A stretch of 64,000 nt of DNA from an archaeon (GTDB lineage Archaea; Nanobdellota; Nanobdellia; Woesearchaeales; GW2011-AR15): assembly GCA_018671515.1 (NCBI GenBank), contig JABHHN010000062.1, positions 13,746-77,745 of the forward strand. The letters are read 5' to 3'. This document shows positions 1 to 52,438 of this stretch, piece after piece. Position 1 is the first letter of the stretch. The number at the start of each line of letters is the position of its first letter. The position numbers and the translations under genes are program-made. The notes under the pieces are model-generated. The model searched no databases. It saw nothing but the letters and a program-made list of their open reading frames with translations, and was not told the origin of the DNA.

Positions 1-257
1 CATATTTTCTTTTTTCATAAACTCACCTTATACTATTTTTGTATTTAAATATTATAAATCTTTTCAAATATTGAATTAATTTTTACATGTAAAAGTAAAA
101 AAATCAAATATTTGATTTATCACATAAACAATATAGATTAATACGTCTATCATTATTAAAAAATGAATTTTATCACCTCGATCACCACTAAATAATGATA
201 ATTAATCAAAATATTTATAAATATCTTATTTATAACTACTTATAAATAGTTAAAAAT

Positions 258-1142
258 ATGAAAATGAATTTTCAAAAATTAGAGAATGGGGAAATTTTAA
301 CAGATGTTGACCACATCTTAGACATTATTAAAAAAAAAGGTAAAATTTCCGTACAAGAACTTGGAAGAAAACTTAATAGATCTACTGATTGCATAGAAAT
401 ATTGGTCGAAGTTTTAGAAGAAAATAACCTTATTGAAAAACATTTTACTTTAAATAAAATATTTTATACAATAAAAGATGAAAAGAAAAAAAATACTGTT
501 TCAAATAAAAGTGTTAAAGATGTAGTAAAATATACAAAACTTAAAATAAATTCTATAAAAAATAATCAAAATACTATTATCAAATTAAAAGAAGTTGAAA
601 AAAGATTTAAAACCTTTGAAAAAAAAATAGATAAGAAAATAATAGAACTAAAAAAATATGATAAAAAAATATCTTCTTCATTAAAAAAACATCAAAAATT
701 GTCTAAATATGCTATTGATTTTGAAAAAAGAAATAAAAAAATATCAAGGGAACTTAAAATTATCAATAATATAAATGATAAACAAAAAATAGAATTCAAA
801 AAAAGGATAAATACTATAATCCATATTTTAAAACATAAATCTGTGAATAAAAAAGAAATATCTCAAAATAACCATGATTTGATTATGATTATGAATGAAA
901 AAGAAAATATAAAAAATATTTCAAAATCTATAAGAGACGCAATAAAAAAAATGGATCTAAGATCTAAAAGACTTTTAAAAAATATTGAAAAAGTATCTGG
1001 AAAAAGAAATTTTGAATCAGAATATATGAAAATTGATAATGAAATGGATTCATTAAATCTAATATTTAAAAATAGTATAATGGACGTATCATCATTTGGA
1101 GAAGAATCTTATAAAAATGAAACCAAGCCAATTAGATTATGA
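258..1142 (+). CDS. Hypothetical Lys-rich coiled-coil protein with an N-terminal winged-helix-like segment
   Basis: 294-aa ORF. The N-terminal ~60 aa (ILDIIKKKGKISVQELGRKLNRSTDCIEILVEVLEENNLIEK) resembles a wHTH of the TrmB/MarR type. The rest is a K/E/N-rich low-complexity coiled coil. No catalytic motif. Confidence 0.4.
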   Translation: MKMNFQKLENGEILTDVDHILDIIKKKGKISVQELGRKLNRSTDCIEILVEVLEENNLIEKHFTLNKIFYTIKDEKKKNTVSNKSVKDVVKYTKLKINSIKNNQNTIIKLKEVEKRFKTFEKKIDKKIIELKKYDKKISSSLKKHQKLSKYAIDFEKRNKKISRELKIINNINDKQKIEFKKRINTIIHILKHKSVNKKEISQNNHDLIMIMNEKENIKNISKSIRDAIKKMDLRSKRLLKNIEKVSGKRNFESEYMKIDNEMDSLNLIFKNSIMDVSSFGEESYKNETKPIRL

Positions 1143-1587
1143 TTTATATAAACAAATTAAAAAAAAAGACTTAAAAAAAATCAGTCTTAAGTATTTAACA
1201 CTTCTTTTCATTATATCTTTTTCACTTACCTCTTTATTATTTATTTCAAAAAACCAACCAAGCATAACAGGAAAGGTAATAAGTGATAGTAATATAATAA
1301 AAAAATGTAGCACTTTAAATTCAATTTTCAGTAATGATTTAGTTTGTGGAATTACAGATAATAACTACCTTCAAATAAAAAATACAAAAATGAATGGAGC
1401 TAAATTAAAAATAAATAAAATTACATTAGATTCATGCATAGTTGAAACAGATGTAATTCTTTCTCCATATAGAATTAAAAATATAAATATTGAGAATTGT
1501 AAAACTGATTTACAAACAAATATTCAAATCGATTATACGAATTTAGACACAGGAATGAATCATTTAATTTCTGGAATAATAATCTAA
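1096..1587 (+). CDS. Hypothetical membrane-anchored exported protein
   Basis: 163 aa. Hydrophobic anchor LTLLFIISFSLTSLLFI follows a basic N-terminus. Overlaps the previous ORF in another frame, so the true start is probably internal (MKPSQ, ~1117). Confidence 0.35.
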   Translation: MEKNLIKMKPSQLDYDLYKQIKKKDLKKISLKYLTLLFIISFSLTSLLFISKNQPSITGKVISDSNIIKKCSTLNSIFSNDLVCGITDNNYLQIKNTKMNGAKLKINKITLDSCIVETDVILSPYRIKNINIENCKTDLQTNIQIDYTNLDTGMNHLISGIII

Positions 1588-1618
1588 TTTTTATAGAAAT
1601 TAATTTTTTCTTTTTATT

Positions 1619-2284
1619 ATGGAATTAAGTGAAATAGAAAAAGACATTCATCCAAATTTATATTCTAAACTAATAAAAGACATAAAAACATTAAGACCAT
1701 CACAGGAAAAATCCATTAATTCAGGACTAATTGACAATAATAATTTACTTGTATGTACACCTACTGCTTCTGGAAAAACTCTTGTTGCTGAAATTGCAAT
1801 GCTTAGTCACATATATAATAATAAAGGAAAAGCAATTTATATTGTTCCTCTAAAAGCACTTGCAAGTGAAAAATATGAAGAATTCAAAATTAAATATCAT
1901 GATATAAAAGTAGGCATTTCAATTGGAGATATTGATTCAAGTGATAGATATTTAGAAAAATGTGATTTAATAGTAACTGTTGCAGAAAAACTTGACTCAC
2001 TTATAAGACACAAAGCAATATGGCTTACCAATATATCTTGTATTGTAATCGATGAAATTCATCTTCTAAATGACACATCAAGAGGACCTACACTTGAAAT
2101 ATTAATTACTATCTTAAGAAAAATTGTCAAAAATGCACAAATAATTGGACTCTCAGCAACTATTGGAAACCCTGATGTTCTTGCAGGATGGCTAAAAGCT
2201 AAATTAGTAATCGATGATTGGAGACCAGTAAAACTTCGTAAAGGAATATTTCATGATGGAGAAATTGAATTTTATGATGATTAA
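1619..2284 (+). CDS. Ski2/Hel308-like superfamily-2 helicase, N-terminal RecA domain only (truncated or split gene)
   Basis: Motif I TASGKT, Ia/Ib, motif II DEIH and motif III SAT are present in 221 aa. No helicase C-terminal domain (motifs IV-VI). The ORF stops where the convergent antiporter gene ends. Confidence 0.6.
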   Translation: MELSEIEKDIHPNLYSKLIKDIKTLRPSQEKSINSGLIDNNNLLVCTPTASGKTLVAEIAMLSHIYNNKGKAIYIVPLKALASEKYEEFKIKYHDIKVGISIGDIDSSDRYLEKCDLIVTVAEKLDSLIRHKAIWLTNISCIVIDEIHLLNDTSRGPTLEILITILRKIVKNAQIIGLSATIGNPDVLAGWLKAKLVIDDWRPVKLRKGIFHDGEIEFYDD

Positions 2285-3519
2285 TGCATACGTTTTCGTC
2301 TTTTTTCTATAACTTTAATACCTAAACCTTTAAAATATCCTTTTTCAATTATAAATATTAAAATAGTACTTATCAAAATACTAAAAAAGATTATTGATAA
2401 AACTATAGTTGAATATTTTTCACCATATGGAAGACCCGCTTGAGCAGGTATTTGAGCAAGAACTGCAGCAGCAAGACCTTTTGGTGCAAGTGCCTCCATA
2501 AATGCCCTATCTTTATCTAAAATATGTGTTTTAACAGTTATTAATACAACAAAAGGCCTTATAATAAATATTATTAATGTCAATAAAAATCCAAGAAGAA
2601 TACCCCCCAAATCATTAAAATTCATCAATAATCCTAAATACACAAAAAAGAATGATTTTACAAAAAATGAAATTTCTGAATAAAAAAATTTTTGTGAATG
2701 TGACATAGAAGCAGTATTGTCTTTTTCTACCATATACATAATCTTCTTTGAATTTCCTAATATAAGACCAAATGCAAGACATGCTATAGCTCCATTTTGA
2801 TCCATGTATTCAACAAAACCATACATCAAAAGTAAAAATGCAATTGTTGTCATATATGATTTTGTGAATTTTTCCATCCTCTTCTGAATTTTTATCCACA
2901 TAAATCCACTAAAAAGTCCCAACAATATTGATACTGCAAATTTTATAATTACTTCATTAAAAATTGAATTTATACTAAGTCCACCTGAATCACTTCCAAT
3001 CAAAGTAATAAGTGTAACTGCACCAACAATACATAACACATCACTTATTGCAGATTCAATCGTAAGTATAAGTGAAGAATTTTTGTTCATAGTAATTTTT
3101 TTAGTTATCGGAATTACTACTGCACTTGAACTTCCTCCAACAATTGCACCTAAAAGCAATCCTGAACTAAATTTCCATCTAAAGAAAATAAACATCAATA
3201 TTCCAATAATTACAGTTGTGAAAATGAAATTGACAACAGTCAAATTTACTCCTTTGAAAAATTGTGTAATAAGCTGTTTTATATTTATTGACAAAGCACC
3301 TTCAAATAATATATATATCAATGCAAAAGATGTAAATATTTTTGATACTGCACCAAATGAAGGATTGTTTGCAAGCTGTGGAAAAAATATATTTAATACA
3401 ACTCCAAAAATCATCAACCAAATAATATCAGGAATATTTGTTTTTTCAAATATTATTTCTCCAAAAAAGCCTAAGAAAATGATAATTCCCGCCAATGCAA
3501 ATAATGAAAATACTTCCAA
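2281..3519 (-). CDS. Na+/H+ (cation:proton) antiporter, CPA1/NhaP-like
   Basis: 412 aa with ~11-12 TM segments. The architecture and Gly/Ser-rich helices are typical of the Na_H_Exchanger family. A short C-terminal basic tail follows. Confidence 0.55.
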   Translation of the reverse strand: MEVFSLFALAGIIIFLGFFGEIIFEKTNIPDIIWLMIFGVVLNIFFPQLANNPSFGAVSKIFTSFALIYILFEGALSINIKQLITQFFKGVNLTVVNFIFTTVIIGILMFIFFRWKFSSGLLLGAIVGGSSSAVVIPITKKITMNKNSSLILTIESAISDVLCIVGAVTLITLIGSDSGGLSINSIFNEVIIKFAVSILLGLFSGFMWIKIQKRMEKFTKSYMTTIAFLLLMYGFVEYMDQNGAIACLAFGLILGNSKKIMYMVEKDNTASMSHSQKFFYSEISFFVKSFFFVYLGLLMNFNDLGGILLGFLLTLIIFIIRPFVVLITVKTHILDKDRAFMEALAPKGLAAAVLAQIPAQAGLPYGEKYSTIVLSIIFFSILISTILIFIIEKGYFKGLGIKVIEKRRKRMH

Positions 3520-3599
3520 GTTTAAAGCCCCATATTATAGTATGTAAACAATTGTTGTTTTCCTTTATAAATTTTTAGGAAGAAAAAAATTAATTATTG

Positions 3600-3748
3600 T
3601 AAAGTCGAGACTAATACCACATACTTAAACTTGTGAATACATACTTGACCAACTCGACTTTGCGAGTTGAAAATTCACAAAAAAGATTTTTACGTAATAC
3701 CTCTCACTTTAGTATGAGAATAACGACAAAATCGTGGATTTTCATTAT
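3600..3748 (+). repeat. Intergenic hairpin-rich repeat element, copy A (family 1)
   Basis: About 80% identical over ~100 bp to the reverse complement of 51764..51870. Contains inverted repeats aaagtcgag/ctcgacttt and caactcg-actttg-cgagttg. Carries a 49-bp insertion flanked by acaaaa relative to copy B. Confidence 0.5.
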
Positions 3749-3781
3749 TTTTTTATATTAGATTTAATTCATGACAATACT

Positions 3782-4681
3782 ATGAATTTCATTCAAAAAC
3801 AATTATTTAAGGCATCATCAAAACTTTCATCTAAAAACACCATAGTAAGTGTAGAATTAGAAGATGGAAAAATTAGTGATGATGAAAATGATTTAGTTGG
3901 TTATTTTAATGAAATTGAAGGTTTGGAACGAAAAATTCTAGCAGTTAAACATGCTGATTTTTCAGGTTTAAATGACTTTTTTTCAGGAGCTTATGCAATA
4001 TCTAATTATATGTCTGATTCAAATTTTTCTATTTTGGCAACTAAAGAATTAGATTTACCAATAATTGGTAGCCTTTTAAAATATCTTGGATTTGTATTTG
4101 TAAATAGATCTGGTAAAAAAGAAGAGAAGAAAGAAAGTTTAGATCAACTGATTAAAGATATAGATAAAAATTATGTAGTAATTGCACCAAATGGTTCAAG
4201 ATATCCACAAACTCAAAAAATAGGTTTAAGTTTAGCAGAAAAAGCATTACTTATGCAATCATATGTTATTCCTATTGGTATAAAACATTTACCAGAGGAG
4301 GAAAAATATAGTATGCTAGGAAGATTTGATGAAACATTTATTACATTTAAAAAACCTGATGAAACATATATCACATTTGGACAACCGATTAAACCACCAA
4401 ATCCAAAAGATTATATTTGGTATGATGATTATGGTGCTATTGCAGATATTAAAACCTTAAGCAATGATGAAATTATTGAAAATTATCACTTACCTGATTC
4501 TGATACAAACTTACCTGATTCTGATGCAAATTATGAGAAAAACAAGGAAAAAATGTATGAATATGTACAAGATGTTTTAATAAAATCATGTGAATTAAAT
4601 GGAGAAGCAATACCAAAATCAATTTCACGAACCTATGAAGAAGCAGGAAAATTAATAGAACTGAAAAAAACATTAAAATAA
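3782..4681 (+). CDS. Hypothetical protein with lysophospholipid/glycerol-phosphate acyltransferase (PlsC-like) motif pattern
   Basis: The ORF track starts at a GTG (3734) inside the repeat. An ATG at 3782 is more plausible. Motif II-like GFVFVNR, motif III-like IAPNGSR and motif IV-like VIPIGI are present. Motif I (HxxxxD) is not canonical. There is a 21-bp tandem duplication (LPDSDTN/LPDSDAN) near the C-terminus. Confidence 0.35.
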   Translation: MNFIQKQLFKASSKLSSKNTIVSVELEDGKISDDENDLVGYFNEIEGLERKILAVKHADFSGLNDFFSGAYAISNYMSDSNFSILATKELDLPIIGSLLKYLGFVFVNRSGKKEEKKESLDQLIKDIDKNYVVIAPNGSRYPQTQKIGLSLAEKALLMQSYVIPIGIKHLPEEEKYSMLGRFDETFITFKKPDETYITFGQPIKPPNPKDYIWYDDYGAIADIKTLSNDEIIENYHLPDSDTNLPDSDANYEKNKEKMYEYVQDVLIKSCELNGEAIPKSISRTYEEAGKLIELKKTLK

Positions 4682-4696
4682 ATTAAAAAATTAGAA

Positions 4697-6061
4697 TTAA
4701 AACTTAGGCATACCCTTCATGCCACCTGCGCCACCCATCTTTTTCATCATACGTTCCATATTCTTCATGGAACCACCTTTAAACATTTTCATCATTTTCT
4801 TAGACTGTTTATATTGCTTAAGTAAATCTCTTACTTCTTTGATTTCTCTTCCACTTCCTTTATGAATCCTATCAACTCTGTTTCCTGATATGATTGTTGG
4901 GTCTTCAAGTTCTTCTTTAGTCATACTATCCATTACAAATTTCCATGCATCTATTTTTTCCTGCTGGACATCAATTGCTTCTTTTGGCATTTTTATCTGA
5001 CCCATTCCAGGTATTAATTCCATTACTTTTGAGAGCGGTCCCATTTTCTTCATTGCCTGCATCTGATCATATAAATCTATTAAATTAAATTCTCCTTTTA
5101 GAAATCTTTTCCCCATATCTTCTGCATCTTCGTTTGAGATTGCACCTCTTGCCTTTTCAAGTAAGACTTCTAAATCACCCATTCCTAGAATACGAGAGAC
5201 AAAACCTTCTGGATTGAATTCTTCTAAATCATCTATTTTTTCTCCTACTCCTATAAATTTTACTGGTGCATCTGTTACTGAACAAGCAATTAATGCTCCT
5301 CCACCTTTAGCAGTACCATCAAGTTTTGTTATTATGACTCCAGTGACATCACATGACTCATGGAATCCTTGTGCTTGTTTTTCTGCAGCCTGACCAATAT
5401 CACCGCTAAGTGTAAGAAGTGTCTCATCAGGGTTTATTAAAGCATTTATTTTTTTAATTTCAACAACTAATTCATCTGATAATGCATCACGTCCAGCAGT
5501 GTCCACGATTATAAAATCATATTTTTCTAATTCTTCTGCATATTTTTTATATATCTCTTGTGGATCTTTTGATTTTTCATCCCCAAAAACAGGGATATTT
5601 ATTTTATCTCCTAATTGTTTTAATTGTTTAAACGCTGCAGGTCTCCAAGTATCAAGCTGAATCATTGCAACTCTTATTGCTCTTTTCGAAAAATATTTTG
5701 CTAATTTTCCACATGTAGTTGTTTTTCCTGAACCATATAATCCAACAAGCATCAATTTGAACGGTTTTTTATCTATAGAAATCTTTGCTCCTTGCCCACC
5801 TAGGAAATTTACTAATTCTTCATATACAACATTTAAGAGATGCTCTTTTTTTGTAAGTCCTGCAGGTAAATCTTCTTTTAATGTTCTTTCTTTTATTTTA
5901 TTTGTTAGTTCAAATACTAATTTTACATTTACATCTGATGTCAATAATGCTCTTTGTATGTCTTTTATAAGCTCATTTATGAGTTTTTCATCTACAAAGA
6001 TGCTGCTAGTTATCTTATTTAGAGTGTTTTTTAGTGAATCTCCTAGTTTATCAAGTACCAT
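4697..6061 (-). CDS. srp54: Signal recognition particle protein SRP54
   Basis: N domain plus G domain with P-loop GLYGSGKTTTCGKLA and DTAGR. A Met-rich M domain is at the C-terminus (MMKMFKGGSMKNMERMMKKMGG). Confidence 0.9.
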   Translation of the reverse strand: MVLDKLGDSLKNTLNKITSSIFVDEKLINELIKDIQRALLTSDVNVKLVFELTNKIKERTLKEDLPAGLTKKEHLLNVVYEELVNFLGGQGAKISIDKKPFKLMLVGLYGSGKTTTCGKLAKYFSKRAIRVAMIQLDTWRPAAFKQLKQLGDKINIPVFGDEKSKDPQEIYKKYAEELEKYDFIIVDTAGRDALSDELVVEIKKINALINPDETLLTLSGDIGQAAEKQAQGFHESCDVTGVIITKLDGTAKGGGALIACSVTDAPVKFIGVGEKIDDLEEFNPEGFVSRILGMGDLEVLLEKARGAISNEDAEDMGKRFLKGEFNLIDLYDQMQAMKKMGPLSKVMELIPGMGQIKMPKEAIDVQQEKIDAWKFVMDSMTKEELEDPTIISGNRVDRIHKGSGREIKEVRDLLKQYKQSKKMMKMFKGGSMKNMERMMKKMGGAGGMKGMPKF

Positions 6062-6133
6062 TCTAAAAAAGAAGATGATATTATTTTAAAAATCTAGTGG
6101 AAAATCTGAAAAATATGATTAATTATTAATTAA

Positions 6134-7315
6134 TTATGTTTTATAAACAGAAGCTGCGTTTGCAGGTATACAATAATGAGGTGGATCCCATTCTGGCCAT
6201 GGATGAACTATTCCTAATTCCTCTGTGATTTTTATTACTTCAAGAGGCAAATCAATCCAATGAAAAGAATCTAATGATTTAGTAGGATCATTCAAATAAA
6301 GATCTACTGCATATCCTGTTTGATGTTGACTATATCCTGCTTTAGCTGTTGGATAACCTTTTTTTTTATTTTCTATATATAAGTTCCCTTGATCCGAATA
6401 TGATCTATAACCTTGTAAAGCATGTACTGTATAACCTTTCTCTTTTGCTTTTTTAACTAACTCATTTAGAATATGTTCAATATCTGGATGAATTTCTATT
6501 TTATTACTAATACCTTCATTTTCAAATATAGTTTTAGCATTAAGTACTTGATCTTCTCTCCAAGGTGTGTTTATTGGTCCACATCCATAATCCTCAAAAG
6601 TTGAACTTCCTGATGAAATTAGTTGATTTTCATTATTCTCTGCTGCTTCACATTGCTCTGTTGTAAAAACTTCTCCATTGGAATCATCACAATCCTCATT
6701 ATTCAAAGAAAATTTCTGTTGTGCAAAATCTAGCTGTGTTGGTTTATCATCTCCACTACAACACAAATAAATTTCTCCATCTATACCATGACCATCTCCA
6801 TCTGTATCTATATAATATGGACCTTGTGGATTATATCCCGAAAATCCTAAATTCTCACAAAAATCCACTACTTCTGTTTCTGTTTTTGTTGTTGCACTAG
6901 TTATCCAACATTTACCTTCTCCTGTGCTTCCAGTTGGTATTGGTTCAGGTTCTAAAGTTGGTTGTTGTTCTGTTGGTTCTATAGCTACTGGTTCATTAGT
7001 ATTCTCTTTACCTGTAACCCATTGCGTAATTCCACCTACAGTTACTCCTACTGCTGCACATGCTGCAATTACAGGTACCCAAGATATTGCTCCACCAGGA
7101 ACAAATGTAAGTATTCCTGCAATTACTCCTCCTACAACACATCCACCCACTCCTACTCCTATTGTCAAACCACCTATAGCTGAACCAGTAATATCAGCCA
7201 TAGTATTACCTGTAACTTCATTTCTTAGTTTACTATCTTCTGCATATGCAAATATACTATTTAGAATAATCAAGATTCCAAAAATTACAAATATTTTTTG
7301 TTTTGCTTTTTTCAT
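6134..7315 (-). CDS. Membrane-anchored exported protein with C-terminal peptidase M15 (VanY/D-Ala-D-Ala carboxypeptidase-like) domain
   Basis: Signal/anchor MKKAKQKIFVIFGILIILNSIFAYA. A Gly-rich multi-helix hydrophobic segment follows. Conserved Cys module FCENLGFSGYNPQGPYYIDTDGDGHGIDGEIYLCCSGDD. The C-terminus carries zinc-peptidase motifs SQHQTGYAVD ... VHPWPEWDPPHY (H-x6-D ... E-x-W-H pattern of M15). Confidence 0.6.
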   Translation of the reverse strand: MKKAKQKIFVIFGILIILNSIFAYAEDSKLRNEVTGNTMADITGSAIGGLTIGVGVGGCVVGGVIAGILTFVPGGAISWVPVIAACAAVGVTVGGITQWVTGKENTNEPVAIEPTEQQPTLEPEPIPTGSTGEGKCWITSATTKTETEVVDFCENLGFSGYNPQGPYYIDTDGDGHGIDGEIYLCCSGDDKPTQLDFAQQKFSLNNEDCDDSNGEVFTTEQCEAAENNENQLISSGSSTFEDYGCGPINTPWREDQVLNAKTIFENEGISNKIEIHPDIEHILNELVKKAKEKGYTVHALQGYRSYSDQGNLYIENKKKGYPTAKAGYSQHQTGYAVDLYLNDPTKSLDSFHWIDLPLEVIKITEELGIVHPWPEWDPPHYCIPANAASVYKT

Positions 7316-7467
7316 ATTTATTTTTTAATTTTTCATTACTATATAAATAAATTATATTTAGTTTAAAGAGTTTTTTATATATATATATTTTTATTCTAAA
7401 GTGGAAAAACAATATAATTTTAAAAATCTAATAGAAAAAATAAGAAAAGATGTAAGTTTTTATGATT

Positions 7468-8472
7468 CTAAGTATCAGTTTCTACAACTGCTGGCGGTTG
7501 TTGTGGTTCAGGCGTAGGTTCTACAGGAACTGGTTGTTCTGTTGATTTTTCTATTGAAACTACTTTTATCGTTAATCCCTCATTAAAATCCCATTGATTA
7601 CCAATAGTTACCCACTTAAAATTAACACCAACTTGTACCTTACATCCATTGACATCATTAACATCTATCAAAGTAACATCATTCCCATCTATAACTTTTA
7701 ATTCACCAATATTAAAAGATTCCGAATTACCACCAATATCCAATATACATCCTGTGATTTCACCTGCATTTTCTGCTGGTTCTTCTATTTCAGATTCTTC
7801 TTCCACTGGTTCTTCTCTTGCAGGTGAATCGTCTTCATCTTCATCATTAAGAGCAAAATGTTGTTGAGCTGCTTCTAATAAACCTGGTTCTTCCGTAAAT
7901 CCACTTCCACAACAAAAAAATATTTCTCCCCCAGTACCTTTACCATCTTTATCCGAATCTACATAATATGGACCTTTAGGATTATATCCTGGAAAACCTT
8001 CATTTTTACAAAAATCAGGTGTATCTGTTTCTGATATATATATTTCTTTAGCAGGCCAACAGAATTTACTACCAGTACTAGTTCCATCAGGTATTTGTTC
8101 TGGTGCTGCAGTTGGTTGTTCATCAGTACTTCCTGAATCATCTACATCAGTAGAAGTATCTCCTTCTCCACCATTCGATTTACTACTAACCCAACCACCT
8201 ATACCTCCTAGGGCTATCGCTGTAATCCATGTTGCTGGAGCTGCTGCGAGTCCCATTAAAAATACACCTAATCCTGTTGCTGCAACAGGAAGAATTAATG
8301 GCAATCCCACTACAACTAATGCCGTTAAAGCTACCGCAGCAACTACGCCCCCAATAACCCAACCCAAAGGAAACTTTTTTCCCTCACTAGTTTCTTCTGC
8401 ATAAGCCACTATTGAATTTAATATAATCAATATACTAAATATTGCAAATAATTTCAGTTTTGTTTTTTTCAT
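7468..8472 (-). CDS. Membrane-anchored exported protein, paralog of 6134..7315 (lacks the M15 domain)
   Basis: Start taken at the internal MKKTKLKL (8472), since the longer ORF overlaps the upstream giant gene. Same signal peptide, Gly-rich hydrophobic segment and Cys module (FCKNEGFPGYNPKGPYYVDSDKDGKGTGGEIFFCCGSG; AQQHFALNDEDEDDS) as the neighbour. Acidic and Pro-rich C-terminus. Confidence 0.55.
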   Translation of the reverse strand: MKKTKLKLFAIFSILIILNSIVAYAEETSEGKKFPLGWVIGGVVAAVALTALVVVGLPLILPVAATGLGVFLMGLAAAPATWITAIALGGIGGWVSSKSNGGEGDTSTDVDDSGSTDEQPTAAPEQIPDGTSTGSKFCWPAKEIYISETDTPDFCKNEGFPGYNPKGPYYVDSDKDGKGTGGEIFFCCGSGFTEEPGLLEAAQQHFALNDEDEDDSPAREEPVEEESEIEEPAENAGEITGCILDIGGNSESFNIGELKVIDGNDVTLIDVNDVNGCKVQVGVNFKWVTIGNQWDFNEGLTIKVVSIEKSTEQPVPVEPTPEPQQPPAVVETDT

Positions 8473-8498
8473 TCTTATTTTATTTTTTTTAATAATTA

Positions 8499-11400
8499 TT
8501 ATGGTGTATTCAAACAAGCACATACGTCATTATTTTTTTGATTGCAAACACTATCTGATATTGATGTACATACACCTTGTCCAGTACATATTGAACCAAA
8601 CTGTTTTTCACATTTCCTTTTGCAATAACAATCGGCTCCATTATCACCACATATTGTTTCAGTTTTAACATCAATACATAAAGTTTCTTCTTCATTTATA
8701 TCAGGACATGGTTTTGAATTATCACAAGAATATGAACATAAAGGATTAAGCCAAAAATGACCACCTTGCTTTAAGCATTCAAAATTTTCTCCACAAAAAT
8801 CATTACCTAAATTTTTACAATTTTTATCAAAATTAGGATTACTAATCCCATTTTCTACAATATCTTCTGGTGTTCCCCAATTTGTTCCAACACCATAATC
8901 ACAATTCTCTTTAAAATCTTCATACTCTCCTTTTTCTGTACCACATTGCACATAATATCCATTTTCTGGAGTTGAAATTAATGCTTTTCCAAAAGTACAA
9001 CTACCACTACTTATTTTTGATATAGCACACCAATCTGTACTTTCTGCATCTGGATCTGATGATTCAAGAGCATAAAATAAATCAGCTTTACAATAACACA
9101 TATTATCATTTACTTCTTCTACTGCTTCACAGACATTCATATCACATTTAGCATTATAATTTTCTCTATTTATTGTTTCTACTGCTTCCCCAATGTCTGC
9201 TAACTTTTCAACTAAAGCATGCCAAGCATCTTGTAAAACTCCACCAGTACCAGCAGCTGTTGATACATCATATTCATCAATATGTTTTTTTCCTTCATCA
9301 TCATCATCACCAAATGTAATAATTCCGCAATTTGCATCTTTAGCATCTTCAACTTGTGGACATTGACCTAATCCAATACCTCCACAAAAACAATATCCTT
9401 TATCTCCACCTTCTTCGCCACCATCTGGAATTTCGCCACCATCATCTGGAGTTTCTCCACCTTCTGGTTCTTCTTCTGGTGTTTCAGGTTCCTCTTCAGG
9501 ATCATCATCACATTCAATACCACATTTCTCTTCCATCTCATCAGTACATGCAGCTTCAATATTTTCCTCACTGCATATATCTTCATATTCACCATGACAT
9601 GTATCTTCATCATATCCTTCTATAGATGAATATCCCCATTCTGAATCATCATTTTCACAAATTAAGCAAATCCCACCAAACCAAAACAAATTGTTCTCAT
9701 CTATTTCTCCTTCTTCTTCACATACTTCATATTTTCCTTCACAAGTCTCAAATATTATTCCTTCTTCTCCAGGTTCTGTTAAATCAAGGCTTAAATACTT
9801 GAAAATATCATCATCTTCATTTTCAGTTATTGCTCCTTGTATCTGAGTACATCTTTTACATATTCCTTCGCCATAATCTTTTAAATCACCTAATTCATCA
9901 TTATCACATTCTTCATCAACCAATGCAACACAGCCTTCCTCAGTTTCTATTTCTGAATTAAGTAACCATGAATAATCTTCTACTTCTGCTACAGATTTTA
10001 CTTGACATATCCAACAACCATTTGGAAGTGGAGTTTCATCATCATCATCAAAAATAATATTATCAACATTTTGCTTATTGCAAACTTGTTCAGGAAATAT
10101 TTTTTCACAACACACAGAACTTACTCCACAATACATTTCAGGTAATGAAATTCCTTGCTCCAAAATACAAAGATCATCAGACTCCACACCATCTGTATTT
10201 TCCATACAAAACCTATCATCATTGTCTTCTCCTTCAACAACACAATCTTCTGGTATTGTAAGTTGATCGTCATCAGGAGGAACTAATATATTTGGACCAG
10301 GTACACATTTTAATTCTGATTCTTCTGGATTAAAATCTTCAAGCACACCTGCATTACAAAAATGTTTAGGTGGTTCTAATGTTGTTGGATTATTGCAATA
10401 ATACCAATCACCTTCTGATATGCTACACTCAAAGGTTAAACAAGCATCTCCAAACATTGGCTCTACATTACCTTCATTACAATAATAACAAAGACCATAT
10501 TTCCCATTTCCTTCATCAAAATAACTTTCATCAAAATAAGTCATACCTGTTTTAATATCCAAATCTGCTACTATTTCTTCTCTTGTATCTTCATTTACAA
10601 CAGTATATGTACCAATACAATCAGTTATACTTGGTTTTGCTCTACAGCTAATTGTATTTTCAGGTGGAGTTTCTAAAAATTCACCATTACAACAATACAT
10701 GAATTCATTATTAGCAGTAGGAACATAAACATTGTTTTCACCATTTGTATTTTCATCTGACCCTAATTTTAAACAAGTACAATCTTTGTCAGACTCAGAG
10801 ACAATATCTGGGCATGTTTTTGTGCCCAATTGACAGGATCCACCATTAGGACTTAATGTACCAGTCATTGTTCCATCATCATATATTATTTCACTACATT
10901 CCAATAACGCATTTTCAACTATTGTTTTATCCACTTCATCTAATAATATAATTCTTGATCTTAAATCTTCAAAATCACATAATGTAATTTCATTTGGTTC
11001 ATTATAATGTCTATTTGAAAATAATCTTGAAAGGAACAATGTTTTTTGTTCTTCGTCAACTGTACCATCAACTTCTGGAAATTCTTGATTAATTACATCA
11101 ATAAAAGTTCCAAGACATAATTCTTCACCAATAATTTCTGAATCTTCATCTATAATTGCTGAATCTTCATCTATAATTTCAGAATTTAGACAATCTCTTA
11201 GATATTCAATTCTTCCCTCTAATGTTGTTGAACATTCATCAATTCCAACAATTCCTTTTCCTGCAATCCTCAATACAAAATTGGTCCACAATGTTGTATC
11301 ATAAATTCCATTTCTTGGATAATTTACTGAATTAACATATATTTTGTTTTCACCAGAAAGTACTTCACTGCTCCCATCACCCAATCTTAATGGTCCTGTA

Positions 11401-13628
11401 ATTCCAAATGTTTCAGGATTTAATCTAATATATGAAATATCAGAAGATGTTGCTCCTACTTGTAAATTCTCTTCAGATGTATCAGTTTCAAAAAAAGCAT
11501 ATCTTTCTCCTGCCACATCTTCTTTTGAATAATAAGTATCATCGGGTAAAAATTCATCATTATCAATTACTACTGTTTCGACATATTTTTGATTATCATG
11601 TATAAAATAATTGTTTTCTCCAAAATCCCCACCAGGTAAAAATTCAAATGGATTTGAACTATATAATGCACTCAATATAATAGCTCTAGAATTGATTCTA
11701 AAATCATCCAACCAAATTATTCTTTCATCATCACCTTCATTGATAATCATAGGTTCATCAGCTGGTTTAAGTGAACAAGCATTACCAAATGTTAAAAGTT
11801 CAAAACTCAATTCACCTTCAAAACTTACAGAATCAATCTGATTTGGTTGATAAAATTTATCAAGACCTGATATTTTTTCTTTATTTGCATCAATATATCC
11901 ATAAGTCATAGGAGTTGCATAAAATGGTGCATTGATTCCATTATTAGGATATCCTAAAGACTCTCCAAAATAGTAAGGATATTCAATTGAAACTCCTCTT
12001 TTATTTTGTAAGTTATTATAATTTAATATAGGTGTAGCTGAAAGAATTGTAGAACCAATATGTAAATCACAAGTATTTGCATTATTACAAACACATTGTG
12101 CTCTATCATTAATTCCATCTCCACTAATATATTTTTCAACAAAAGAAATAAATTTTTCTTCATCAGTTTCTCCATTTAATGCAATATTAATATCTTCACT
12201 TGTAAAATATTCAAATAAATCTCTTTTTGCCATTTCAGAACAAGTATCATAACATAATTCATCATCTACATTTCCTGATGTTAAACCACAACCTTCGACT
12301 GCTTTTATTCGTTGACTGGGTAAATCTTCTGCACTTTTTACAGGAATCCAATCATCCTGATCCCAATCATTTAGCAACAATCCTTTATTTTCACAAAGAT
12401 GATCTCTAAAATCATTATTTTTCTCATAATTTGAAGGAATTGGATATTTTTCAATACTATATATAATATCATCATCAAATGTACAAGTCGCTTCACCCAT
12501 ATATTCTGGATATAAATGAAGACCGTTTCTTGTTGTTGGCAATTGAATATGTGTACACTTCTCTTTTTTATCCAATGCTTTATTTTCATTCCATTCTTTA
12601 AATTCAACAATACTACAATATTCTATAAGTCCATCTAAATTCTCAACCCATCTATTCCTATCACTTGGCTCAATTAGATTTATGAATTTATTAAGAACTG
12701 GTAAATTGTAATATCCTGTTTCTTGTGAACCACAATCTACAACAGCTACTTCTGTAAAATGATCTACTAATGCAACTACTTGATAATATGTATTTCCATC
12801 ATATGTAACTTTTTCTACTTTCTGTGTTTCATATGTTCTCCAAAGTCCTGTTCTTCTATCCCACCACCCTAATTTTAGTTCTTCTGGTGGATAACCTTTT
12901 GGTATTTTTTCTTCCAAAACATCTACAGTAAATTTAATTGGTGGATCAAAGATTGCACCATCAGGTGTTCCTTCATATACTACTGAACCAATTACAACTT
13001 TATTATCAAGACCATCAAAATTATTATCTAAAACTGAAATTGCAACTTTATCAATTGACGCACCACCATAATCTTTAACTGTAGTATCTTCACTAAAAAA
13101 TAATGTTGACCTACCATCACTTGATTTTAAGAATGTATTTTTTTTTATAAGACCATTTTCAGTCCTTATCTCAATTGAAACTGGAATCCTAAATTGAAAT
13201 TCATTTAGTTCTAAAATCTCTTCACTTTTACTAAGTTTTATTGGATAACTAATTTTTACAAATATAGAATCAGGAGAAATTTCTACATCTGCGTCAACAT
13301 CTCCCTCTTCAACCTTATACCCTGAATCTTTAAACAATCCATACTCTCCCGTACATTCTTTTAAATTATTTTCAATCCATGCTTCATAAATATTTTCAGT
13401 ATTATAAAGACCATATAATTCCTTTGCAAAAAGTGTATTTTGCTTAAGGCATTCTGTCACATAGAAATTAAGACTATCTTTAGCAAATGGAAATTGTCTG
13501 ACATCATCTGAATCCCTTTGAAGACCTGATTTTAAAAAAATGTCTTTAAAATAAAATGACATAATTACTGATATAACAATTATTAATCCAATTATTACAA
13601 ACTTTGTTACTTGAGATTTCTTTTTCAA
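8499..13628 (-). CDS. Giant (1709 aa) cysteine-rich extracellular surface protein, N-terminally membrane-anchored
   Basis: Single uninterrupted ORF. N-terminal anchor KFVIIGLIIVISVIMSFYF. More than 100 Cys in the C-terminal two thirds, as clustered CxxC/CC motifs. Acidic linker DDDPEEEPETPEEEPEGGETPDDGGEIPDGGEEGG. Internal 27-bp tandem repeat encoding IIDEDSAIIDEDSEII. Confidence 0.6.
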   Translation of the reverse strand: MKKKSQVTKFVIIGLIIVISVIMSFYFKDIFLKSGLQRDSDDVRQFPFAKDSLNFYVTECLKQNTLFAKELYGLYNTENIYEAWIENNLKECTGEYGLFKDSGYKVEEGDVDADVEISPDSIFVKISYPIKLSKSEEILELNEFQFRIPVSIEIRTENGLIKKNTFLKSSDGRSTLFFSEDTTVKDYGGASIDKVAISVLDNNFDGLDNKVVIGSVVYEGTPDGAIFDPPIKFTVDVLEEKIPKGYPPEELKLGWWDRRTGLWRTYETQKVEKVTYDGNTYYQVVALVDHFTEVAVVDCGSQETGYYNLPVLNKFINLIEPSDRNRWVENLDGLIEYCSIVEFKEWNENKALDKKEKCTHIQLPTTRNGLHLYPEYMGEATCTFDDDIIYSIEKYPIPSNYEKNNDFRDHLCENKGLLLNDWDQDDWIPVKSAEDLPSQRIKAVEGCGLTSGNVDDELCYDTCSEMAKRDLFEYFTSEDINIALNGETDEEKFISFVEKYISGDGINDRAQCVCNNANTCDLHIGSTILSATPILNYNNLQNKRGVSIEYPYYFGESLGYPNNGINAPFYATPMTYGYIDANKEKISGLDKFYQPNQIDSVSFEGELSFELLTFGNACSLKPADEPMIINEGDDERIIWLDDFRINSRAIILSALYSSNPFEFLPGGDFGENNYFIHDNQKYVETVVIDNDEFLPDDTYYSKEDVAGERYAFFETDTSEENLQVGATSSDISYIRLNPETFGITGPLRLGDGSSEVLSGENKIYVNSVNYPRNGIYDTTLWTNFVLRIAGKGIVGIDECSTTLEGRIEYLRDCLNSEIIDEDSAIIDEDSEIIGEELCLGTFIDVINQEFPEVDGTVDEEQKTLFLSRLFSNRHYNEPNEITLCDFEDLRSRIILLDEVDKTIVENALLECSEIIYDDGTMTGTLSPNGGSCQLGTKTCPDIVSESDKDCTCLKLGSDENTNGENNVYVPTANNEFMYCCNGEFLETPPENTISCRAKPSITDCIGTYTVVNEDTREEIVADLDIKTGMTYFDESYFDEGNGKYGLCYYCNEGNVEPMFGDACLTFECSISEGDWYYCNNPTTLEPPKHFCNAGVLEDFNPEESELKCVPGPNILVPPDDDQLTIPEDCVVEGEDNDDRFCMENTDGVESDDLCILEQGISLPEMYCGVSSVCCEKIFPEQVCNKQNVDNIIFDDDDETPLPNGCWICQVKSVAEVEDYSWLLNSEIETEEGCVALVDEECDNDELGDLKDYGEGICKRCTQIQGAITENEDDDIFKYLSLDLTEPGEEGIIFETCEGKYEVCEEEGEIDENNLFWFGGICLICENDDSEWGYSSIEGYDEDTCHGEYEDICSEENIEAACTDEMEEKCGIECDDDPEEEPETPEEEPEGGETPDDGGEIPDGGEEGGDKGYCFCGGIGLGQCPQVEDAKDANCGIITFGDDDDEGKKHIDEYDVSTAAGTGGVLQDAWHALVEKLADIGEAVETINRENYNAKCDMNVCEAVEEVNDNMCYCKADLFYALESSDPDAESTDWCAISKISSGSCTFGKALISTPENGYYVQCGTEKGEYEDFKENCDYGVGTNWGTPEDIVENGISNPNFDKNCKNLGNDFCGENFECLKQGGHFWLNPLCSYSCDNSKPCPDINEEETLCIDVKTETICGDNGADCYCKRKCEKQFGSICTGQGVCTSISDSVCNQKNNDVCACLNTP

Positions 13629-16712: not shown

Positions 16713-16829
16713 GCGCCGGTGGTCTAATGGCTATGATTTTGGCCTTCCACACGTTAAAATCGAAGATTCACTGGATCTTCAACTACGTGAAGATAGCCGA
16801 CGATCTGGGTTCAAATCCCGGCCGGCGCA
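16713..16829 (+). tRNA. tRNA-Gly (anticodon UCC) with a 45-nt intron at the canonical 37/38 position
   Basis: Acceptor stem GCGCCGG/CCGGCGC, discriminator A. T-arm CTGGG-TTCAAAT-CCCGG. D-loop with GG. Anticodon stem TTGGC/GCCGA with loop CUUCCA|A. Exon 1 is 16713..16749, intron 16750..16794, exon 2 16795..16829. Mature length 72 nt. The intron 5' CACG can pair with CGTG near its 3' end (BHB-like). No encoded CCA. Confidence 0.75.
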
Positions 16830-51336: not shown

Positions 51337-51696
51337 TTAATCCGACAATGCATCTCTATCTAATTTACTCTTTGATTTATGGCACTCTTTACAAAGTGTT
51401 CTAAGATTAGCTTTTTCAAATAATTTACCACCCATTTGGATTGGAATTATATGATCAACTTCAAGCCCTGCTTTTCTAAATCGTTTTTTACAAATACTAC
51501 ATCTGTATTTATCTCTTCTTAAAACATCTTTTCTAACCCAAAACCATGAATTATTCCTATTGAATTCATCCATGCATATTTTAGAACAATAATGACGTCG
51601 TCCTTCTCCAATTAGATTATCGCAATTCCTACAAAGTTTATCTCCTAAACTATCAAATTTGTCAGGCGTGTCAGATATTCTTGGATAACGTGGCAT
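51337..51696 (-). CDS. HNH endonuclease
   Basis: Zn ribbon CRNC...CSKIC. HNH core CSICKKRF...LEVDHIIPIQMGG...NLRTLCKECH. Confidence 0.65.
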   Translation of the reverse strand: MPRYPRISDTPDKFDSLGDKLCRNCDNLIGEGRRHYCSKICMDEFNRNNSWFWVRKDVLRRDKYRCSICKKRFRKAGLEVDHIIPIQMGGKLFEKANLRTLCKECHKSKSKLDRDALSD

Positions 51697-51763: not shown

Positions 51764-51870
51764 TTGTTTTATAATTAAAATCCACGATTTTGTGGATTTT
51801 CAACTCGCAAAGTCAAATTGGTCTAGTTCATATCCACAAACTCAAGTATATGATATTAGCCTAGACTTTA
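51764..51870 (-). repeat. Intergenic hairpin-rich repeat element, copy B (family 1)
   Basis: The reverse complement taaagtctaggctaatatcatatacttgag...ccaatttgactttgcgagttgaaaatccacaaaatcgtggatttt aligns to 3600..3748 at ~80% identity. It lacks the 49-bp insert of copy A. Confidence 0.5.
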
Positions 51871-51883
51871 CAATAATTAAAAA

Positions 51884-52438
51884 ATGAAAAATGCATTTAT
51901 AATACATGGAACTGAAGGTTATCCCGAAGAAAACTGGTTTCCATGGCTAAAAGAAAAATTAGAAGCAAATAATTACAAAGTATTTATTCCTCAATTTCCA
52001 ACTCCTAAAAATCAAGACCCTGAACACTGGTTTGAAGTTTTTAATGAATATGAAAAATATCTTGATAATGAAACTATAATTGTTGCACATAGTGGTGGGT
52101 GTGCTTTTTTATTAAGACTTTTGGAAAAAATTAAAATTAAAATCAATATAGCTGTTTTTGTTGCACCACCTGTAGGTGTAATGCCTATAAAATATATAAA
52201 AGCAGATTGGCCATTTATTAAAGATCCTATTGATTGGAAAAAGATAAAAAGTAATTCAAATAATTTTTTAGTTTTTCACTCAGTTGACGATCCATTCATA
52301 TGCATTGAAAATGGTGAAAAAGTTGCAGAAGAATTAGGAACAAATTTAATTAGATTAGAAGATGCAGGACATTTCAATAAAAAATCAGGTTATCTTAAAT
52401 TTGACCTTCTTTTAGAAAAATTAAAACCAAATCTTTAA
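51884..52438 (+). CDS. RBBP9/YdeN-like serine hydrolase (alpha/beta fold)
   Basis: FIIHGTEGYPEENWFPWLK. Nucleophile elbow VAHSGG. Acid/His in the C-terminal part. ~180 aa, typical of the Ser_hydrolase family. Confidence 0.6.
   Translation: MKNAFIIHGTEGYPEENWFPWLKEKLEANNYKVFIPQFPTPKNQDPEHWFEVFNEYEKYLDNETIIVAHSGGCAFLLRLLEKIKIKINIAVFVAPPVGVMPIKYIKADWPFIKDPIDWKKIKSNSNNFLVFHSVDDPFICIENGEKVAEELGTNLIRLEDAGHFNKKSGYLKFDLLLEKLKPNL

Follow-up and report, generated by a model that had tools for sequence, protein, structure and literature searches.

Two diverged copies of a hairpin-forming intergenic element in a marine Woesearchaeota-like archaeon: candidate genes for a small structured RNA

Two intergenic regions lying 48 kb apart in the genome of an uncultured, marine, Woesearchaeota-like DPANN archaeon hold diverged copies (A and B) of one non-coding, hairpin-forming element, and the duplication is real. 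We tentatively interpret copies A and B as paralogous genes of a small structured non-coding RNA, so far encountered in this archaeon only, and place this reading first among those considered while regarding it as possible and not as established. A preliminary description of the same DNA had listed a small structured RNA gene, a MITE-like mobile element and a shared operator as candidates, and the first of these now emerges as the best supported of the three, given a strand-specific consensus fold, substitutions that spare the helices, an insertion confined to a loop, a TATA-like box and a 3' U-run. The alternatives to it rank in the order cis-acting leader, DNA regulatory module, decayed mobile element and functionless duplication, and each is weighed below where the pertinent evidence is given. 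All positions refer to the 64,000-nt stretch of contig JABHHN010000062.1 that was analyzed (the window; 28% G+C).

Copy A occupies positions 3590–3748 of the plus strand (159 nt, including a 49-nt insertion) and copy B positions 51771–51880 of the minus strand (110 nt). After removal of the insertion from A, 94 of 110 aligned columns are identical in a pairwise alignment (85%), while BLASTN aligns the two at 83.9% over 93 nt (E ~1e-22), complemented by the common tail ACAAAATCGTGGATTTT. The earlier estimate of ~80% over ~100 bp is thus upheld, and rigorous computation does not bring identity down to a background level of <60%. The boundaries given at the time require correction: both copies exist, but A starts at 3590 and not at 3600, and the interval 51764–51870 assigned to B is off by ~10 nt at both ends. 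Core patterns of 27–28 nt occur in the window at the A and B sites only, with 0.00 occurrences expected from 100 shuffles, and a permissive search of the window returned no third copy. As had been recognized, both copies reside between divergently transcribed genes, A between a Na+/H+ exchanger gene (minus strand) and an acyltransferase-like gene (plus strand), B between an HNH endonuclease gene (minus strand) and a serine hydrolase gene (plus strand). No conserved ORF is common to A and B, and the substitutions lack a 3-nt periodicity. The 16 substitutions that separate the copies comprise 12 transitions and 4 transversions, with six of them in helices; their clustering is not significant (p 0.13–0.27), and uneven substitution density was for that reason dropped as a sign of selection. 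The insertion of copy A, bounded by ACAAAA as previously described and confirmed by alignment, is located in the terminal loop of hairpin H3 and folds into a small hairpin of its own. Part of it (3695–3722) is a direct repeat of positions 3612–3639 within loop L1 of copy A (71% identical, 20/28). There are hints, from comparison of the sequences, that the insertion arose by internal duplication and not from foreign DNA. The coordinates of all features are collected in Table 1.

Table 1. Predicted structural elements, TATA-like boxes and further features of the window (strand + or −; positions in window coordinates).
Feature	Copy or gene	Position	Strand	Details
Hairpin H1	A	3604–3649	+	P2 GUCGAG (3604–3609) with CUUGAC (3644–3649), encloses variable loop L1; RNAalifold
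Hairpin H2	A	3650–3669	+	P3 CAACUCG/CGAGUUG, invariant loop ACUUUG
Hairpin H3	A	3670–3742	+	P4 AAAAUUCAC (3670–3678) with GUGGAUUUU (3734–3742); insertion in loop
Alternative helix Px	A	3631–3638 with 3673–3680	+	
Insertion specific to copy A	A	3683–3731	+	49 nt, bounded by ACAAAA; alignment and fold
Hairpin H1	B	51821–51866	−	P2 GUCUAG (51866–51861) with CUAGAC (51826–51821)
Hairpin H2	B	51801–51820	−	P3 CAAUUUG/CGAGUUG, loop ACUUUG; two G-U pairs, possible on minus strand only
Hairpin H3	B	51777–51800	−	P4 AAAAUCCAC-AAAAUC-GUGGAUUUU, then AAUUAU
Alternative helix Px	B	51839–51832 with 51797–51790	−	
TATA-like box	A	3563–3572	+	CTTTATAAAT, 8.7 bits, ~1 per 2560 positions; predicted start 3594–3597
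TATA-like box	B	51895–51904	−	TATTATAAAT, 5.2 bits, ~1 per 236 positions; predicted start 51873–51870
Own TATA-like box	Acyltransferase-like gene	3749–3758		ATG at 3782; leaderless spacing
Own TATA-like box	HNH gene	51727–51718	−	ATG at 51696; leaderless spacing
tRNA-Gly(UCC)		16713–16829	+	Rfam 46.5 bits; ~45-nt intron after position 37

The strand of the element is predicted to fold into three consecutive hairpins, with helices at alignment columns 15–20/55–60 (P2), 61–67/74–80 (P3) and 81–89/96–104 (P4), and an alternative helix Px at columns 42–49/84–91. Folded singly, copy A reaches −36.4 kcal/mol (z −4.9) and copy B −28.0 kcal/mol (z −3.8); the reverse complements fold about equally well (z −3.7 and −4.6), and single-sequence folding is therefore without strand preference. 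For the element strand, RNAalifold arrives at a consensus energy of −26.05 kcal/mol (z −6.6; 0/500 column shuffles did as well), as opposed to −14.15 kcal/mol (z −2.5) for the reverse strand, an asymmetry that arises because each G-U pair becomes a C-A mismatch on the opposite strand. All 21 pairs of P2, Px and P3 are formed in both copies, and P4 is intact as well. Compensatory double changes are seen at pair 18/57 of P2 (G-U in A, U-A in B) and at pair 47/86 of Px (A-U in A, G-C in B), while pairs 64/77 and 66/75 of P3 differ between A, with G-C, and B, with G-U; with the change at column 86, P4 also stays paired, providing a third G-C/G-U change. The nested inverted repeats of the preliminary description are present, but its aaagtc(g/t)ag…ct(c/a)gacttt fuses two different helices: AAAGTCGAG pairs with CTCGACTTT in copy A only, and in copy B the partner of GTCTAG is a CTAGAC placed 9 nt more upstream, at a site where A has CTTGAC and forms a G-U pair.

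We then asked of the substitution pattern how often it would leave the fold intact by chance. When 16 random substitutions were introduced into either copy, followed by refolding, the observed consensus energy was reached in 10–11 of 400 runs, and in 162 of 400 runs when the same simulation was done for the reverse strand. In a simulation with fixed helices the chance of zero broken pairs amounts to 1.2–1.5%, with 3.3–3.5 of 21–22 pairs expected to break. The significance of the structure-preserving pattern is thus p 0.01–0.03 only, for helices that were derived from the same two sequences on which they were tested. Judged from two sequences, these data point to a secondary structure kept by evolution in DNA devoid of coding potential.

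It is on this pattern that the last-ranked alternative turns, namely that the copies are a functionless remnant of an old small intergenic duplication, their hairpins kept by chance or by template-switch correction of quasi-palindromes. The existence of just two copies of an element not found elsewhere, the modest p values and the nonsignificant clustering of differences all fit such a remnant. Neutral drift should, however, have broken the ~3.3–3.5 pairs just mentioned, template switching yields perfect arms and not the G-U pairs observed, and the strand asymmetry together with the upstream TATA-like boxes would have to be coincidence. We therefore assign a low probability to this explanation and continue with small structured RNA genes as the preferred one.

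Next to the three-hairpin fold, both copies can form mutually exclusive helices. Helix P1 (columns 8–17 with 67–76) is invariant between the copies and extends to 13 bp in A, an extension that is broken in B. In copy A the P1 state is favored (−36.4 versus −32.0 kcal/mol), and in copy B the combinations P1+P4 and P2+P3+P4 are nearly equal (−27.7 versus −28.0 kcal/mol). Px, in turn, is an alternative to P4 and forms a knot with P2. These properties invite a bolder reading, in which the element would be a bistable, pseudoknot-capable regulatory RNA and the first of a new DPANN class, alternating between a knotted P2+P3+Px state and a P1+P4 state, with switching by ligand, protein or temperature gating the abutting promoters or distant targets. 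Of all proposals put forward here we hold this one to be the most doubtful.

To locate transcription signals, a promoter weight matrix was derived from the sequences preceding 35 genes of the window; it converges on ATTTATAAAT. The TATA-like 10-mer ends 22–25 nt before the ATG in most of the 35 genes, a spacing which suggests that the mRNAs of the host are predominantly leaderless. A ATTTATAAAT site scoring 10.2 bits is also found at the tRNA-Gly(UCC) gene, where it ends 26 nt before the mature 5' end; this tRNA was found by Rfam, and ARAGORN reports no tRNA in the window. Both copies of the element are preceded by a TATA-like box on their own strand, the box of A ending 27 nt and that of B 24 nt before element position 10, and both boxes lie beyond the conserved block or just touch its margin. 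At the 3' end, H3 is followed by U4 in both copies, and by a further U7 in A. What would be expected of a small RNA gene, that is, a promoter of its own at the correct spacing and a termination signal, thus appears to be present as far as sequence signals go. Two points count against reading these signals as those of an RNA gene. The TATA-like box of copy B scores weakly and falls among the first codons of the divergently oriented serine hydrolase gene, in coding DNA rich in A+T, and the palindromic box of copy A may be simply the promoter of the antiporter. With 8.7 bits in the plus direction and 9.0 bits in the minus direction, in which the antiporter gene lies, the latter box (TTTATAAA) could be used by the Na+/H+ exchanger gene and by the element alike. 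When read on the plus strand (51845–51859), loop L1 of copy B gives AAGTATATGATATTAG, which has its last base 25 nt upstream of the serine hydrolase start codon (ATG at 51884) and probably represents the TATA region of that gene. By the A/B differences at columns 28 and 31, the opposite strand of L1 is more TATA-like in B than in A.

Taking the copies as small RNA genes, we envisage the following. Each copy would be transcribed from its own TATA box, with a start near element position 7–10 (~3596 in A, ~51872 in B), and transcription would end at the U-run after the last hairpin (~3742 in A, ~51777 in B), to give predicted RNAs of ~147 nt (A) and ~96 nt (B). Such an RNA would consist of a short A/U-rich 5' tail followed by H1 (6-bp P2 and a variable loop), H2 (7-bp P3 and the invariant ACUUUG) and H3 (9-bp P4). 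Through the competing pairings P1, in which the 5' tail engages the H2 loop and 3' arm over 10–13 bp, and Px, it may switch between two states. Its role could be that of a trans-acting regulatory or a protein-binding RNA, and we conjecture that the invariant 5' block and the H2 loop would serve as contact surfaces. In a search for trans targets by duplex energy, the top nonself windows fell within the expected extreme-value tail, and neither a target nor a partner emerged.

The competing helices and the position of the element with respect to its neighbors bear on the alternative that ranks first, a cis-acting leader or upstream transcript. Here the element would be read towards the acyltransferase-like gene (A) or the HNH gene (B), and would exert control either by alternative folding (Px versus P4 plus U-run, P1 versus P2+P3) or through interference of its transcription with the promoter adjoining its 3' end. 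Mutually exclusive helices occur in both copies, with the two states of B nearly isoenergetic, H3 plus the U-run resembles a terminator, the TATA-like box of the next gene begins 0–6 nt after the element, and copy B ends in U4 only, which makes read-through conceivable. On the other hand, both downstream genes possess a TATA-like box of their own, spaced as is typical for leaderless genes of this genome, which argues for the element being a separate unit. These two genes are functionally unrelated, and the orientation of the element is uninformative, as any element in a divergent intergenic region points at one gene. A U7 run is expected to stop archaeal RNA polymerase, and the one that follows copy A should do so. 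On balance a leader appears unlikely, and the stand-alone RNA gene remains the reading that we prefer.

Alternatively, the conserved blocks may act as DNA, as transcription factor sites (for instance the palindrome ATCCAC-N6-GTGGAT) combined with parts of a bidirectional promoter and common to two coregulated divergent gene pairs. This would agree with the location of both copies in divergent promoter regions, with a perfect 9+9 palindrome in B directly upstream of a TATA-like box, and with L1 of B, whose opposite strand probably provides the serine hydrolase gene with its TATA region. In copy A, however, the palindrome, which is the only clean one, is split by 49 bp, and an insertion in the loop of H3 is tolerable for a helix but not for a protein-binding palindrome. 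In GTGRAT/ATYCAC a G-to-A change is matched by C-to-U; this pair of changes and the U-A versus G-U change in P2 suit a helix and not half-sites, and G-U pairs render the folding strand-specific. Finally, the half-site-like motif TTGTGRAT occurs 14 times in the window against an expectation of 12.8, which is no enrichment, and neither copy has a regulator gene as its neighbor. The shared operator of the preliminary description is disfavored on the grounds of the TTGTGRAT count and the split palindrome, and we consider a DNA module improbable when set beside small structured RNA genes.

The third alternative is a nonautonomous mobile element or decayed relic thereof, either MITE-like or a hairpin-ended derivative of IS200/IS605, that at some time in the past inserted at two intergenic sites. 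The element is short, noncoding, hairpin-rich, intergenic and present in more than one copy, it has TAATTA at both ends, and single-strand transposons need strand-specific hairpins, which would explain why the helices were kept. No terminal inverted repeats of at least ~10 bp were found at either copy, the ends comprising only the self-complementary hexamer TAATTA and A/T runs of differing polarity in the two copies, so that a terminal inverted repeat is at most a low-complexity palindrome of 6–7 nt. Target-site duplications are equally absent from the flanks, which read AAAAAAA/TTTTTTA for A and CATTTT/AAAACA for B. With regard to the copy count and the target-site duplications that the preliminary description had proposed to look for, ~93 kb of this one contig contain two copies and neither is flanked by a duplication. 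Collections of viruses, plasmids and phages yielded no copy, both copies are present in all same-species contigs that were retrieved, with no empty site seen, and each copy has a TATA-like box beyond its conserved block, at a distance that agrees between the two. A Pfam domain of a transposase or integrase was not detected among the genes of the contig surveyed, several ORFs of which lack any Pfam match. The MITE-like element proposed before is therefore not borne out by the ends and flanks of the copies, and a mobile origin in the wider sense is, in our estimation, not a likely one.

Mobility had also been read from the HNH endonuclease gene next to copy B, a suggestion that finds no support. 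The encoded protein is a stand-alone, phage-type protein of 119 aa with a zinc ribbon and an HNH domain and has its own promoter-like box; its gene keeps the same neighborhood across all contigs retrieved, and no nuclease gene lies beside copy A. Its closest solved structure is 5h0m, a phage HNH nuclease of 130 aa. The best NCBIfam match is the HNH segment of IscB (guided_IscB), at E 8.9e-12 and 44.7 bits versus a cutoff of 175. Pfam returns no RuvC-family match for the protein, and no PLMP motif is evident in its translation. An IscB/HEARO omega-RNA system was considered and rejected on the basis of the length of the protein (119 aa versus ~400–500 aa for a split-RuvC effector), of the same bit score and of the lack of a HEARO match in Rfam.

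We searched for further copies and for known families at several levels. A covariance model (R1) built from copies A and B scores these at 118.5 and 136.5 bits, respectively, and retrieves only A and B from ~93 kb of the same contig and nothing from ~100 kb of the closest relatives. As to compensatory base changes, which the preliminary description had hoped to trace with such a model, the two double changes described above are found, and a formal covariation shuffle test, which has almost no power with two sequences, reaches the observed score in 131 of 500 shuffles. A scan of species-representative genomes with a 19-mer core produced seven bacterial matches, all attributable to chance, and a 17-mer core scan of JGI metagenomes yielded 62 loci with one real match, being copy A itself. 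Core scans of viral contigs gave chance matches only, and BLAST against phages and plasmids no match. The negative outcome of the core scans carries little weight, since the collections barely contain the host and copy B itself was not recovered. In Rfam (4227 families, Rfam 15) the sole match in the whole window at the gathering threshold is the tRNA at 16713–16829, and at E ≤10 both loci return subthreshold noise only. Full-text searches of the literature uncovered no described small RNA family resembling the element. The element is thus known from one clonal population only, and this weakens the small RNA reading.

RNA-seq studies of Methanosarcina, Haloferax, Sulfolobus and Thermococcales have yielded catalogues of intergenic small RNAs. 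The element resembles such archaeal sRNAs in that it would be a stand-alone RNA of ~100–150 nt with a TATA-type promoter, several hairpins, a 3' U-tract, no ORF, a lineage-restricted occurrence and paralogous copies, but it matches no Rfam family by sequence or structure, and its host is an uncultured DPANN archaeon. With MITEs and the palindrome-associated elements derived from IS200/IS605 it shares being short, AT-rich, noncoding, hairpin-forming, intergenic and repeated, and it differs from these in having no real terminal inverted repeats and no target-site duplication, with two copies in the ~93 kb surveyed and no partner transposase seen among the genes of that contig. Copy B, as a structured candidate RNA upstream of an HNH ORF and in the same direction, is reminiscent of HEARO/omega RNA with IscB; the 119-aa ORF, however, is without RuvC and PLMP, and no nuclease is found beside copy A. 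The element also recalls riboswitch and attenuator leaders, in that it offers two choices between competing helices and its last hairpin runs into a U-run. In contrast to these, the downstream genes are unrelated and have their own promoter-like boxes, no ligand-binding family is matched, and the genes of the host appear to be mostly leaderless. Features of box C/D or H/ACA RNAs were looked for by inspection: neither copy contains UGAUGA or CUGA, nor a tandem G-A motif flanking a 3-nt bulge. The snoRNA-like matches in Rfam fell outside the element and far below threshold. Replication-origin boxes were discarded, since the surroundings of the cdc6 gene hold no related repeats. On its antisense strand, the tRNA-Gly intron (16750–16796) matches columns 80–110 of copy B at 25/31 positions, with E 0.006 in blastn and 12 bits under the covariance model. 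This resemblance of the intron to H2–H3 was dismissed as chance: the duplex energies looked unusual versus random queries, but proved unexceptional when ranked among all 48-nt windows of the stretch analyzed.

The gene content is in line with the assignment of the host, and includes an archaeal Nre protein and tRNA-Gly(UCC), with a Cdc6-type gene located just upstream of the window. The same DNA was matched to NCBI contig JABHQI010000067.1 of the marine assembly GCA_018696815.1. The SRP54 protein retrieves entries labeled archaeon, Woesearchaeota or Nanoarchaeota, with the best nonself match 74% identical, and a synteny search for orthologous loci found the gene order around SRP54 not to be conserved in relatives. 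The acyltransferase-like gene is an orphan, with no homologue outside its own cluster. The 1709-aa ORF at 8499–13628 (minus strand) has no Pfam domain on record and occurs as a 1687-aa variant in another assembly. Same-species contigs are 99.2–100% identical and both elements are invariant among them, from which it follows that we are dealing with an approximately clonal population that is uninformative on constraint. The sole variable tract of these contigs is inside SRP54, where the contig from GCA_018657865.1 has 44 mismatches in ~150 bp (window 5231–5379) and is identical over the other 5.2 kb; this is a recombination tract or an assembly artifact at a breakpoint. In ENA ERZ508549, NODE_722 joins the NTP-transferase gene of the host to bacterial-type sigma-70, GGDEF, BacA and GMP synthase genes (1–9400 versus 10001–11397), and is probably a chimeric assembly.

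The element is so far confined to one clonal population and is otherwise an ordinary finding, with no bearing on a long-standing question. Its interest lies in the host. DPANN archaea are uncultured, have reduced genomes and apparently mostly leaderless mRNAs, and information on their regulatory RNAs is, as far as we are aware, very scarce. A promoter-equipped structured RNA in two diverged copies, as proposed here, would offer a concrete candidate to be sought in marine metatranscriptomes and may become the seed of a new RNA family.
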